This document shows, piece by piece, positions 31,001 through 37,000 of a stretch of 64,000 nucleotides of DNA. Numbering within the stretch: the first letter of the stretch is position 1; each line of letters starts with the position of its first letter. A program made the position numbers. Origin of the DNA: Escherichia coli (GTDB taxonomy: Bacteria; Pseudomonadota; Gammaproteobacteria; Enterobacterales; Enterobacteriaceae); assembly GCF_001677475.2 (NCBI RefSeq), contig NZ_CP012498.1. One strand, given 5' to 3'.

Positions 31001-34000
31001 ATAAAGAGATGTCAAGGGAGAAAGCTATAGAACAACTAAAAAAAATATCTGTTTTTTTCAGGCAATCTGAACCCACTAGTCCTGTACCTTATCTTCTTGA
31101 AAGAGCAGTACGTTGGTCAACAATGACTATGTCAGAATGGCTTGAGGAACTACTTAAAGATAATGAATCTATGGAACAAATAAATCGTATTTTAAAAGGG
31201 TAAAAAATTAATGACTAGTAAGTATCTGTTACTAATAGCTATAGCATTACCTTTTTTTATTAGTTCTTGCTCTGATAAGTATTCTGAGCAGGAAAAAATG
31301 CAGGTTATTAATAATGTCGATACTCCATTTGGTGCAGGCTTGATTACTTTTCAGATATCACCCGATACACAATTAAACTCACTTAACGATATATCCAATA
31401 GCTGTACTTTATTATTCTTACAGGCCTCAGGTAAAAAAACATTACAGGACTTAATGAATAATCCAGTGTTAATTAAACAGTTTTTCAGTGGGGCTGGTAA
31501 AATTGATGGTATTCTTAAAGTTGATAAATATGTGGCAATGCCAGCTCAGGAGACAACACTACATATAGATCGGAGTGAAGGTGCTAAATATGTAGGTATT
31601 ATTGCCGGATACTATCCCTTTCCTGGAAAACAACATATGGTGCTTTTAGATATCCCTGTTAATGTTATTGAGGATGGGTGGTGGAACAAATCATTACATG
31701 CGTCACTATCTCCTCTTTTTAAAAAGATATCTATGGGTAAAGAAAGTATCAGTATAAAATAATTGTACAGGTATTACTGCATGCAAGAAGAAGAGCAACT
31801 TATTTATTGGTATTCAGGCCTTTATTTACAACCTCAGCATTTTCAGTCAATTGATTTGCATCATAGTTTCATGCTTGCCAGAAACAGGCAGTTATCACAA
31901 CCCTATTATCAGGGGTACTATGAATGTCATATAAATGATAATCTTCTGAAAGAAGATACAATCAGGATTGAAAAAATAAAGGCTGTGTTACCTTCTGGGT
32001 ATTATATCGAGTACCCTGGTAACTGTATTGTGCAGGATAAGTGCCTGATAAATCTTAGAGGCACAGATACTGGAACTGTCAATTTGTGGCTTGCTCTTAA
32101 GCGATTTAATTCCGGTTATAAAAATGTATCCAGTGTTAATGATAAACGAGGCTCAGCCAGATGGGTAAGCCCAAATGATGAAAGCAACATGCGTAATGTT
32201 TATCATGATAGTCAGGATGTAGGTATCACAAGAATAAAATATGATATTCAGATAATTACAGATGAAGAAAAAGAGAATACCACAGACTTTGAATACTTAC
32301 CTCTAGCCAGGGTTATTCATAGCAATAATATATTGTGTATTGATGATGAGTATTCATTTCCAGCTATGAGGTTATCAGCTAATCATATACTTAGAGGTAA
32401 AGTTGCAGAAATTAAATATATCCTTAATTTCTACAAAAATAAACTTGAAGAATATAGATATACAGAACGAAAAGTGTCCGATAGACATTTTTATAATTTT
32501 TTTATTCTATGTGCTATTAATAGAGCTTTATCACTTCTTTCATCATTTATGAATGAAGATGCAACCCATCCTTGGTTATATTATATGGCATTATGTCAGT
32601 TTACAGGGGAAATATCTACCTTTCAGAGAATGGTGGCTACAGATGCTAGAGTTGTTGATTTGTCATACAATCACTATGATCAAATTTCGTGTTTTAGTAA
32701 TCTGCAGTATTATATTAAGGTAATGCTGGAGAATTTATGCAGAGATAAAATTGTTAGTTTTGGTTTCAAACAGTTAAAAACAGATACATTAGTCTGCGAT
32801 TTTGATGGCTATACACTTAAAAATAATGTTGATTACTATATTAAATTAACTTCAGATACCTTCAAAAATAATAATTTGGTTGCATTATCAGAGATTAGGA
32901 TTGCTCCATCTGAACATTTAGAACTGATAATTCAGCATGCTCTTCCTGGGATTGATTTTACAGTGATGGATGTCGTTACATCTGATTTACAGGTTAGAGA
33001 AAATATAATTTGGTTACAGATAGATAAACACTCGGAATTATGGTTATTAGCTCAGGATAAAAAAAAGGTTGCATTTTATTGGTCATGTGCTCCTGATGAT
33101 TTACTTGTAGAGTTAGTATTATTGCAGAAATAAAACATACAATAACTAGATTTGAACAGGTTTTTTATCAGAGGGAACTGCTGCCTATATGTAAAACACA
33201 TCAGAAAAAAACATCTATTATTCAACAGACTGTATTCTTTGAATGATAGTGTTTTGTGCATGGCATTCAATCCGGTTTGTTGTTCAAGTGGAAGACACAA
33301 GGGCAGGAAAGTAATCTCACAGCTATTGCCCGATTATTAACAGGACGTCGCAATAAAGCCAATTTATCTGCTTTAGTGTTTACTAGACATTGAGCTTCAA
33401 GGAAGTGATGGAGTATGTGAGCAATTTTATATACTGGCCCCTGAATATCCAGACAACCATTATCACTTAAATTAAGTGATAGTCTTAATACTAGTTTTTA
33501 AACTAGTCATTGGAGAATGTAATGAACGCATCTCAACTATTTGAGTATGAATCCGGGGTTGGCAGGAAAAGTGTGGAGCCTCGCAGATTTCCGGCATCAT
33601 AGTGCCCAATATGGGATACATAAAGCTCCCTCAGACTGGAGACTCCACAAATGAAATATACACCGGTTGGAGTTGATATCGCAAAACATCTGATTCAGGT
33701 TCACTTCATCAATGAGCACACAGGGGAAGTGGTGGATAAGCAGGTTCGTCGTCAGGATTTTCTGGCGTATTTCAGTAACCGCGAACCCTGCCTGATTGGC
33801 ATGGAAGCCTGTGGAGGCTCTCAGCACTGGGCCCGGGAACTGACAAAACTGGGTCATAAAGTCCGGTTGTTGCAGGCCCGCTTCGTTAAGGCATTTGTCA
33901 TGGGCAATAAGAATGATGTGATGGATGCCAGGGCTATCTGGATAGCAGTTCAGCAGCCAGGTAAAGAAATCGCCGTCAAAACAGAAGAACAGCAGTCAGT

Positions 34001-37000
34001 TCTTGTTCTGCACCGGACCCGCAGGCAACTGGTGAAGTTCCGGACCGCACAAATTAATGCCCTGCACGGGACGTTACTGGAGTTTGGTGAAAGCATTCAC
34101 AAAGGTCGGGCAGCGATGGAGTGGGAGTTCCCTGAAGCACTGGAGCGGATGAAAGAGAGACTGCCACCGTATCTCATTACGGTGCTGGAAGACCAGTACA
34201 ACAGACTGAGTGAGATGGACTCACTGATAGATGATATCGAAAGCTTACCAGTGTGGCCAGGCAGAATGAAACCTGTAAGCGGTTGCTGGATATTCCCTGC
34301 ATTGGACCACTTATTGCGACGGCAGCGGTGGCCACCATGGGGGAAGCATCTGCATTTAAATCAGGGCGAGAGTTCGCGGCTTATGTTGGTCTGGTGCCCA
34401 GACAGACTGGCTCAGGAGGAAAAATCCGCCTGCTGGGGATAAGTAAACGTGGTGATCCCTACCTCCGGACATTGTTTATCCACGGAGCAAGGGCGGCAGC
34501 ATTACTGACCAGAGAACCAGGCCCGTGGATAACCGAACTGAAAAAACGTCGTCCGGCCAGTGTGGCAATCGTCGCCATGGCAAACAAGCTGGCACGAACA
34601 GTGTGGGCAATAGCTGCTCACGGACGTAAATACGACAAGAATCACGTCAGTATCAGACCATATTAATTGCTGAGACTGATAAACATCAAACCTTAAAAAG
34701 GGTGAATGCTGAAAGGTTGCGTGGGCAGCCGTAGTGATGACAACGACAGGTAAGACCTGGACTCGCTAAACCTGAATCTGTTCTAGAGATTAAAGCTCGC
34801 TGGGAGAATAAGGCGCGAGTCAGCGTATTACATAGGGGCCCTCAGCTTCACGGCTGCAACAAGATACTGTTACGGTGCAGGATGCTATGTTCTGTGGTGT
34901 GAAAATGCTTTGGTGCTAACGGTGCTCTCATCCAGCGCAGAAGATAAAATACTAGAAAGCTTCGTGGACAATGATGAAGGAAAATATCGTGTTTATTCCA
35001 GAAGCAGATGTAAGAACAGCATTGCTCACTCTACAGTGGTTATCGAACCTTAATAAGAACCATCTGCATAGTGCACCAGGATCGCTCACTGACGCATATC
35101 TGCGTCAGTGAGTAAAATATCAATTCCAGTTTATCGTTTCCGGGTACAAAACATGTTATATGAATGTATTATGTTATGGAGGTACTGGTGAATATCGTTG
35201 AATGCTATATGCCAGTATTTAAACTTATATCATCTGTTAAAGTCTATCCTGAAGAATATGCTGATTACGACAGTACTAGAAATTATATAATTGATACTGT
35301 TGAAGACGTCGTTCGCAATAGTGAAAAAATATCGTTAAGTGACAGCGAACTTGATGCGGCATTTTATTCAATAGTCGTTATGATTGATGAGGTAATATTG
35401 TGCTCTAAACTTTCTTACAGAAAAGAATGGCGTGATAATCTTTTGCAAGTTAAATATTTCGGACACTCTACAGGAGGTGTCGAATTTTTTAATCTGCTTA
35501 ATAAAGTCATCGAGTCTGAAAGCCGGGTTGGATGGGTTTTTCTTTTATGCCTATTACTTGGATTCAGAGGACAATATTCAGTAAGCAACAACGATGAAAT
35601 TAATAATTATATATCAAGACTAAAACAACAATGCGGGGTAAATATCTATTCTAAAGGAAAAAACAATATTGCATTTAAACAAAAAAAGAGAAAATCATCA
35701 TGGTTTAATTTTTATTTGTCATTTGCATGTATTATTGTTATTTATTTTGTGTTGTTGTTGGTGATATATATGAGATAACTACTTATGCTAAAGAAAATAT
35801 TTCCATTATTTCTCTGGTTTTTTGTTTCTGTTTTCTCTTTGTCTATTTTATATGTGATTGGTGTGTTAAGAAACTGGACAGATACTACAACAGTACTGTA
35901 CTGGATTTTTGTAATTCTGGTCACTCTTTCACTAAAATTACTTGTGGATTGTATACGTAATTACTTTTTGGCAGGAAAATACAGACACTTTATAATGTTG
36001 TTTTTTCGTAAAAAACGAACATTAATGCTTGATTCTTATTTTAGTAAAGGGTTAAAAATCATAAGAAAAAAAGGAAGAGGGAAAATCCCTTGGTTTTTAC
36101 TTACAGGAATTTCAGAAAAAGGCAATTCCTTGATTAATGATATTAATCTTCCAGTCTTTCACTGTAATGGGTTAAATAGTATTTCCCAAAAATTTAGAAC
36201 TATTCGTTGGTGGTTTTTCAGAGATTTAAGTGTACTGGAACTGTCAGGTAAGATATATGATAGCCCAGGGTTACTAAGTTCTGTTATAAGTTTTTTATTA
36301 TCACGAAAATGTAAAAAACAACCACCTCATGGATTTGTTCTTATCATTCCTGTTGATAAGTTACTTGAACATGATCATACATATATAAAAATATTATCTC
36401 AAAAAACAAGGGACGTTATAGAGCAACTGTCTTCACACTTACATCATAATATTCCTGTCTTTCTTGCCATAAGCGGATGTGAGCACATTGATGGATATTC
36501 AGCACTAGCGCAAAAAATTCATCAGAAAAATAGCAAGATGCATCAAGTCTTTTTGGTAATAAATGAATTAGAAAAAAATACATCAGAATATGACTCATCA
36601 TATATATTATCATCATTGAGAATGAATATCATGGAGTCAATATTCAATGTACTTGATGACACAATAAGCGATCAGAAAAAAAACGAGATCCTGCAGTTTC
36701 CAGATAAATTGAATGATATAAAACAATCACTGGATGTCTTTATTTCCACATTCTGTATAGATAATATGTTTTTTTCTCAGACAAAGATCTCAGGGCTCTG
36801 GTTATATGGTGAATTCGAGTCGAGTAATAATAAGATCTGTAGTTTTTATGATATTTTGATTTCTGAAATATTACCACAAATACAGAATTCAGAAGTTATT
36901 CATGTTAACAAACGGAGAGTAAAAAACTTATTTGAATCAGCTATAGTAATAACTGCACTGTGTTTTCTTGGATATAGTGCATATTGTTCATATAATGTAT

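Follow-up and report, generated by a model that had tools for sequence, protein, structure and literature searches.

Three nested insertion sequence remnants between tssK and tssL in a plasmid-borne type VI secretion cluster of Escherichia coli

Does insertion sequence (IS) material lying between two core genes of a type VI secretion system (T6SS) decide whether the system still works? The question is raised by a 64,000-nucleotide stretch of Escherichia coli DNA (contig NZ_CP012498.1, the window hereafter), which is part of a large F-type plasmid and carries a full T6SS cluster from tssB to clpV (21717-41724). In this cluster a gap of 2030 bp separates tssK from tssL, and tssM and then clpV follow downstream of tssL. 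The first-pass annotation had reported an IS110-family transposase gene with an internal frameshift and an IS2-like fragment in the gap, with no core gene destroyed, and had proposed that the function of the system hinges on this insertion. The identity of the element, its frameshift, the IS2-like remnant and the intergenic position all stand, but the idea of a decisive, possibly recent break is not supported. The gap is very probably a graveyard of three nested dead ISs, vertically inherited in one IncFIA/FIB plasmid lineage of Escherichia and tolerated by the T6SS. It apparently represents ordinary genome debris of known kinds rather than a recent disabling event.

The nest occupies 33146-35111 and consists of three layers, all on the + strand:

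33146-33429, + strand: layer 1, 5' part, a decayed AT-rich orfA remnant of an IS3-family element (IS2 group) with in-frame stops
33430-33517, + strand: layer 2, IS2 nucleotides 1-88 (left inverted repeat and 5' untranslated region as far as the GGAGAA ribosome-binding site)
33518-34863, + strand: layer 3, an ISEc11-like element of the IS1111 group (IS110 family), truncated at its 3' end, delimited by alignment with intact copies
34864-35111, + strand: layer 1, 3' part, a decayed remnant of the C-terminal part of an IS2-group orfB, found by tblastn and blastn

The G+C content climbs to 50-56% in the centre of the gap, against about 30-35% for the AT-rich T6SS cluster. The intact copies used for comparison with layer 3 are L005, L006, L007, L016 and L014, the last being the ISEc11 copy: it carries the ISEc11 label of the Prokaryotic Genome Annotation Pipeline (PGAP), and its first 53 amino acids equal the ISEc11 sequence in the supplement of PMC11187229. 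Two features describe the state of the innermost element:

33522-33534, + strand: left subterminal inverted repeat ATGAACGCATCTC, recognised by comparison with intact relatives
33651-34666, + strand: transposase pseudogene, in which a 4-bp deletion is the only lesion of the window copy

The transposase gene is split into overlapping open reading frames (ORFs) at 33651-34442 and 34253-34666, and alignment with four intact relatives and a sister plasmid traces the shift of frame to four bases, AAAC, missing between 34241 and 34242. When they are put back, the gene encodes a stop-free protein of 339 amino acids that is 92% identical to the ISEc11 transposase and scores 328 bits against NF033542 (cutoff 140). 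This repaired product has the DEDD/RuvC-like N-terminal domain (PF01548, amino acids 6-144, E=1.6e-11) and the C-terminal Transposase_20 domain (PF02371, amino acids 210-285, E=8.7e-21) of the IS110 (DEDD) family. The coding sequence is preceded by 130 nt of layer 3 and followed by at least 197 nt.

In the intact relatives, which are about 1.43 kb long, the 13-bp left repeat ATGAACGCATCCC pairs with GGGATGCGTTCAT at the right end, both repeats being subterminal. The right repeat is present in all five intact copies, ISEc11 included, and is missing from the window: about 1353 of the roughly 1430 bp are kept, and similarity to every intact copy stops at 34863, some 80 bp short of the right end. 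Six independently sequenced relatives have the same end-point. The formation of ISEc11 circles requires intact ends and target-derived flanks on both sides (PMC11187229). Because its right end, with the right inverted repeat, is missing, layer 3 is unable to transpose, and the question of the frameshift is therefore functionally moot. The nest as a whole encodes no working protein and cannot transpose.

Layer 3 is lodged between the ribosome-binding site and the ATG of an IS2 orfA, and the IS2 sequence to its left, layer 2, is 93% identical to nucleotides 1-88 of IS2A of K-12. IS2 has terminal inverted repeats of 41-42 bp and an orfA and orfB joined by a programmed frameshift; layer 2 has no orfA, no orfB and no right inverted repeat, and is a fragment of IS2, not an element.

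Layer 1 is older. At 33193-33330, tblastn detects similarity to the OrfA of a Hafnia IS3-family element (52% identity over amino acids 14-63, E=5e-12), and the same region is 40% identical to amino acids 13-62 of the IS2 InsC protein. The NCBIfam model 'IS2 repressor TnpA' matches at the same positions (E=0.0012), and a further LKEAVEY-like motif lies at 33396-33416. The orfB remnant (tblastn, 34863-35108) corresponds to OrfB amino acids ~175-294, from which about 34 codons have been lost internally, and terminates in NHLHSAPGSLTDAYLRQ before a stop. In each of the four IS2-group regions tested, none of 400 shuffled sequences reached the real score. An OrfA helix-turn-helix region together with the C-terminal motif of the OrfB integrase places this layer in the IS2 group of the IS3 family. 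It is degraded by stops and deletions, its inverted repeats were not recognised, and a Pfam search with a 46-amino-acid piece of orfB gave no match.

T6SS clusters of 84-86% identity that lack the IS110-family element are found on plasmid A of E. coli M1 (L003), on a Salmonella Newport plasmid (L004) and in many other records. Insertion points were defined against these clusters, a comparison that had been proposed for this locus. The homology of the window to L003 and L004 ends at 33145/33146 and resumes at about 34937 (blastn alignments start at 34937 or 34973). The tssK-tssL spacer of the two plasmids measures 332-352 bp, and the IS-bearing gap adds about 1.8 kb to the distance between the genes. 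The sequences at 33146-33429 and 34864-34936, which flank the two inner layers, are found only in IS-bearing plasmids. From 34937 on, the orfB remnant is common to the window, L003 and L004 and is recognisable in all three, so the junction held an IS2-group element before these clusters diverged (synonymous divergence, dS, 0.25-0.85). The promoter-proximal part of the 'native' spacer is thus itself derived from an IS. A more distant cluster (L022, 79% identity) has a spacer of 701 bp with only a weak match (E=0.02) to IS proteins. No near-identical empty site was found when the exact 24-mer at 33398-33421 was searched in one genome per species and in the JGI metagenomes.

Two side observations concern this old layer. 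The orfB remnant contains a palindrome:

35085-35112, inside the orfB remnant: perfect palindrome with a 12-bp stem, CTCACTGACGCA-TATC-TGCGTCAGTGAG

It lies ~50-75 bp before tssL; outside the IS-bearing lineage it is imperfect, as in L003 and L004, and it could be an operator or an RNA hairpin. Similar unannotated debris of IS2-group orfA, with 68-80% nucleotide identity to 33182-33329, occurs on pAA of E. coli 042 (L020, 2001-2160) and on Escherichia albertii plasmids (L021, 2001-2073), where it directly adjoins an intact IS2. This points to recurrent insertion of IS2-group elements into or next to older copies.

The nest is widely shared. Eighteen complete E. coli plasmids in RefSeq and nine in PLSDB, partly the same records, carry this truncated structure with identical end-points and identical unique flanks. 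The closest relatives of the window are IncFIA/FIB conjugative plasmids of E. coli and other Escherichia (about 98% identity) from cattle, food, a crow and humans. Of 6928 matching records, the bulk match the 88-bp IS2 end, and the IS110-family element proper matches 548 records. IS4321 and IS5075, which target Tn21 ends, were considered in view of the many plasmid matches and dropped, the IS2 end accounting for the bulk of them.

Four aligned sister remnants share a 1-bp deletion at 33819 that the window copy does not have. This position lies within a tract with a different history:

33809-34691 (~880 bp), + strand: gene-conversion tract, 98.5% identical to L016

The tract is closer to L016, an intact paralogue located elsewhere on a sister plasmid, than to the sister remnants (90-92% identity), whereas the ends of the window element, including the guide region described below, are 97-98% identical to those remnants. 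It was overwritten by gene conversion from a paralogous IS, an event that also erased the ancestral deletion at 33819. The tract explains why the element is only 95% identical to its counterparts on the sister plasmids while its flanks are 98-100% identical. In a sub-lineage of 14 plasmids (L002/L010, pCFSAN004179G) we observed a fourth layer, a frameshifted IS3-family element of 1312 bp at the equivalent of window position 34073, for which the already dead IS110-family remnant served as host.

How did an ISEc11-like element come to lie inside IS2? ISEc11 is guided by a seekRNA that originates in its 3' non-coding region; of the two target-matching segments of this RNA, the one that pairs with the top strand lies 5' of the one that pairs with the bottom strand (Siddiquee et al. 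2024, PMC11187229). The window element retains the corresponding region intact:

34700-34859, + strand: predicted seekRNA (bridge-RNA-like) core of the 3' non-coding region, placed by alignment columns against ISEc11 and by RNAalifold

Guide segment 1 (ATCTGTTCT, 34776-34784) is the reverse complement of IS2 AGAACAGAT at nine of nine positions, and guide segment 2 (TGGGAGAAT, 34801-34809) agrees with the left IS2/IS junction TTGGAGAAT at eight of nine. Segment 1 would pair with the top strand of IS2 and segment 2 reads as the top strand at the left junction, which is the predicted layout of an IS1111-group seekRNA. The guides are enclosed by a stem (34759-34767 paired with 34813-34821) that shows compensatory changes in RNAalifold. 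The ISEc11 guides CAGTATTTT and GTGAAAAT, which match the published target GTGAAAATACTG, occupy the same alignment columns, and the L007/L016 variant and ISEc66 have other guide segments, each matching its own flanks. The same IS1111-type element is also found at the same IS2 position in two unrelated chromosomes (L005 and L006); in L006, IS2 continues after the right end of the element at CAGATGATTG, the start of orfA. Of 5426 complete E. coli genomes, 42 have the left IS2/IS junction, and in 24 of these it lies outside T6SS plasmids. We conclude that layer 3 is a relative of ISEc11, naturally retargeted to IS2. An Rfam scan of 33000-35300 (E<=1) returned a chance snoRNA match and no curated bridge RNA or seekRNA family.

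Other members of this group occupy comparable positions. Four ISEc11-group relatives (L007, 2446-3880; L016, 1446-2880; the ISEc66 copy L015; and L006, 2596-4023) lie a few bases upstream of a start codon, after a GGAG-like sequence, and the left flank ends in GGAGAA in three of the four. The genes downstream encode an aldolase, a phd/yefM antitoxin, an ABC-transporter binding protein and IS2 orfA. ISEc11 itself (L014) sits instead inside the tnpB of IS66. These positions suggest that targeting of translation-initiation regions is a habit of the ISEc11 group. We offer as a long shot the further speculation that the ISEc11-like group is specialised, through reprogrammed seekRNAs, for the gap between Shine-Dalgarno sequence and start codon, one member having become a 'hyperparasite' of IS2 that severs orfA from its ribosome-binding site; the seekRNA still encoded in full by the truncated T6SS copy, if transcribed by read-through from tssK, could then load the transposase of intact paralogues on the same plasmid family and steer them into IS2. 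An ISEc11 target was also considered for the sequence after the truncation (ATACTG..., with GTGAAAATGC at 34895), but this sequence belongs to the old orfB remnant and the resemblance is taken as chance.

The layers are most likely the outcome of five steps. An IS3-family element of the IS2 group inserted between tssK and tssL before the window, M1 and S. Newport clusters diverged, and then decayed; its orfB remnant is found in all three. In the lineage of the window, a copy of IS2 then landed in the orfA remnant, creating the junction at 33429/33430. An ISEc11-like element next entered between the ribosome-binding site and the orfA ATG of this IS2, presumably by the seekRNA mechanism, given its position, the same junction elsewhere and the complementary guides. 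A deletion, presumably a single one, removed the last ~80 bp of this element together with the 1243 bp that were left of IS2 and the central part of layer 1, leaving the joint at 34863/34864. Finally the immobile remnant decayed, the sister remnants sharing the 33819 deletion and the window copy acquiring both its ~880-bp converted tract and its own 4-bp deletion at 34241/34242.

What, then, has the nest done to the T6SS? The two genes that face the gap are both intact:

31781-33133, + strand: tssK (TIGR03353, 249 bits, cutoff 100; PGAP annotation in 99%-identical relatives)
35164-35778, + strand: tssL, DotU family (TIGR03349, 92.9 bits, cutoff 89.95)

For tssK, a TTG upstream at 31763 is another possible start; for tssL, the ATG at 35164 gives the longest ORF and a GTG at 35188, after GGAGG, is the PGAP choice in some relatives. 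ClpV/TssH is recognised by TIGR03345 (938.6 bits, cutoff 884.95). TssM reaches only 50 bits against a cutoff of 388, yet it is encoded by a full-length ORF of 1134 amino acids that is annotated as IcmF/TssM in relatives. The gap thus has intact core components to both sides (TssK, TssL/DotU, TssM and ClpV/TssH), and none of the 15 T6SS cluster ORFs in the window has an internal stop, in agreement with the earlier statement that no core gene was destroyed.

The window and four of the five sister plasmids examined have intact copies of the genes downstream of the nest (tssL, tssM and clpV; 6.5 kb). Among five IS-bearing plasmids these genes show 21 synonymous and 38 non-synonymous variable sites, a ratio of non-synonymous to synonymous polymorphism (pN/pS) of 0.48 that rejects neutrality (P=0.0075); upstream, from the DUF6931 gene to tssK, the same plasmids show 22 and 20 such sites (pN/pS 0.24). 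In the comparison of the IS-bearing lineage with M1, the corresponding ratio of divergence (dN/dS) is 0.17-0.31 for tssL, tssM and clpV. These patterns of substitution, the older IS-derived spacer of L003 and L004, the retention of the nest by 18 plasmids, the intact downstream ORFs and the lack of a terminator-like site (see below) all speak against the proposal that T6SS function hinges on the insertion. On this basis we argue that the insertion is probably tolerated.

Several points weigh against this account. Downstream pN/pS is twice the upstream value, as relaxed constraint would give, although the difference is not significant (Fisher P=0.11). A largely untranslated insert of 2 kb could cause Rho-dependent polarity. 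In one sister plasmid, pla1 of Escherichia sp. HH154_1D (L012), several T6SS genes to the left and right of the gap are broken, which reflects either decay or assembly error. Promoter-like hits in the gap are at chance level, and the + strand hit before tssL is not conserved in L003 and L004. For the boundary between IS2 and the IS110-family element there is a leeway of up to 4 nt. The order of the second and third steps is ambiguous, and an IS2 already bearing an IS1111-type element could have moved as a unit; likewise, the IS2/IS junctions elsewhere may partly represent the spread of one composite instead of repeated targeting.

The first three of these points feed the alternative that survives best, in which the IS110/IS2 insertion uncouples tssL-tssM-clpV from the upstream promoter and the T6SS is non-functional or decaying. 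A long untranslated insert is a classic substrate for Rho-dependent polarity, and here ~1.8 kb of mostly untranslated sequence is added between tssK and tssL; the doubled pN/pS and the frameshifts of HH154_1D in tssK, tssL, tssM and tssG point in the same direction. In detail, tssG and vgrG of L012 are fused, tssK is not annotated, tssL is shortened and tssM is in two pieces, with six alignment gaps and 88 stops in the frame of the window. However, the three downstream genes remain open in the window and most sisters, the excess of synonymous changes is significant where the upstream/downstream difference is not, and relatives lacking the IS110-family element keep a dN/dS of 0.17-0.31 downstream despite a spacer of IS origin. 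Intrinsic-terminator-like sites were not found in 32900-35400, in a scan for promoters and terminators that is uninformative about tssL expression. We therefore regard uncoupling as unlikely, while some polarity or some relaxed constraint downstream may exist. Under tolerated insertion, the signals that drive tssL-tssM-clpV would probably lie in the conserved ~230 bp immediately before tssL, or the genes would be reached by read-through.

Considerably less plausible is co-option of the IS remnant as a new promoter for tssL-tssM-clpV. Outward or hybrid promoters are a frequent product of IS elements, and every member of the lineage retains the nest, but retention is equally explained by a truncated element having no mechanism of excision. 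The scan gave seven sigma70-like hits against 5.9 expected, with no + strand site within 33146-34936, where all six hits are on the - strand; the sole + strand hit of the gap (35089-35118) lies in the orfB remnant and overlaps the palindrome. The only promoter reported for ISEc11 forms when its two ends are joined in the circle, the right end supplying the -35 (PMC11187229), and that end is deleted in the window. A frameshift produced by sequencing error in a live, recently arrived IS110-family element is hardly credible, even though the restored ORF has no other lesion and its surrounding tract is 98.5% identical to an intact paralogue, because a 4-bp deletion is not a one-base homopolymer miscount and is unlikely to be a base-calling artefact, the last ~80 bp with the right repeat are missing, six independently sequenced relatives end identically, and circles of ISEc11 need intact ends with target-derived flanks (PMC11187229).

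The vertically inherited nest can be set beside known systems. For ISEc11, the source is reportedly Prosseda et al. 2006. The window element resembles it in full length (~1.43-1.44 kb), in its 339-amino-acid DEDD transposase, in the 13-bp subterminal repeat, of which the window keeps the left copy, and in a non-coding region downstream of the transposase gene that has the same seekRNA stems and two guides in the same order and columns. It differs in nucleotide sequence (about 88% identity), in its guides, which are directed at IS2 GGAGAA/CAGATG instead of GTGAAAATACTG, and in being dead (3'-truncated, frameshifted and partly overwritten by a paralogue). Isoforms in the ISfinder convention share about 95% of nucleotides or more; at ~88% nucleotide and 92% amino acid identity, and with flanks other than GTGAAAATACTG, the window element is not an isoform of ISEc11. 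The reference locus of ISEc11 in Siddiquee et al. is CP053751 (PMC11187229). The same study describes natural retargeting of seekRNAs between ISEc11 and ISXne4, with common stems and differing guides and sites, and this is also the pattern among the L006-type, L007/L016-type, ISEc66 and ISEc11 elements; here, by contrast, the evidence is sequence complementarity and one of the targets is another IS. With respect to IS2 (IS3 family), layer 2 matches nucleotides 1-88 and the older remnants resemble IS2-group OrfA and OrfB, but neither layer is complete. IS3-family elements are reported to be common near plasmid-borne T6SS-i clusters of Enterobacteriaceae (PMC13098142). The window shares with those clusters a large conjugative plasmid, a complete T6SS and IS3-family elements close by, and differs in having IS debris in the interior of the cluster, with a core gene on each side, and not at its flanks.

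The nest is a lineage marker and not a functional switch, and matters little for the T6SS. It should be handy for tracing large T6SS-bearing Escherichia plasmids from cattle, food and wildlife. It also provides a natural case of an RNA-guided IS1111-type element whose guide matches another IS, and of a dead IS 'repaired' in part by conversion from a live paralogue, a reminder that the inactivation of an IS cannot be dated from one frameshift.

Further IS debris is scattered over the window. The 3' half of an IS2 lies at 46766-47279 (89% identity to IS2 nucleotides 799-1330), and diverged IS3-family pieces (69-76%) at 15865-16937 and 62186-62415. An apparently intact ORF of 343 amino acids occupies 60168-61199; sister plasmids carry an IS630-family transposase gene downstream of the cluster, to which this ORF may correspond.

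Close to the nest, the C-terminus of TssK (window 33120-33145) reads LVLLQK in the IS-bearing lineage and LVLSQEKICSKPVSTG in L003 and L004. The protein is 10 amino acids shorter than the L003 and L004 versions owing to a 1-bp indel directly before the stop; this indel lies 12 bp upstream of the break in homology, and the nest itself is not its cause. The T6SS cluster as a whole is a recombinational mosaic (21717-29336 versus 29347-41724). Between tssB and vgrG the identity of the window is 99.7-100% to plasmid p1RM9088 and only 70-97% to the 08-00022, 10290 and MFDS plasmids, which have a different hcp allele. From the DUF6931 gene onward all compared plasmids are 99-100% identical, and the tssL of the window is identical to that of 08-00022.

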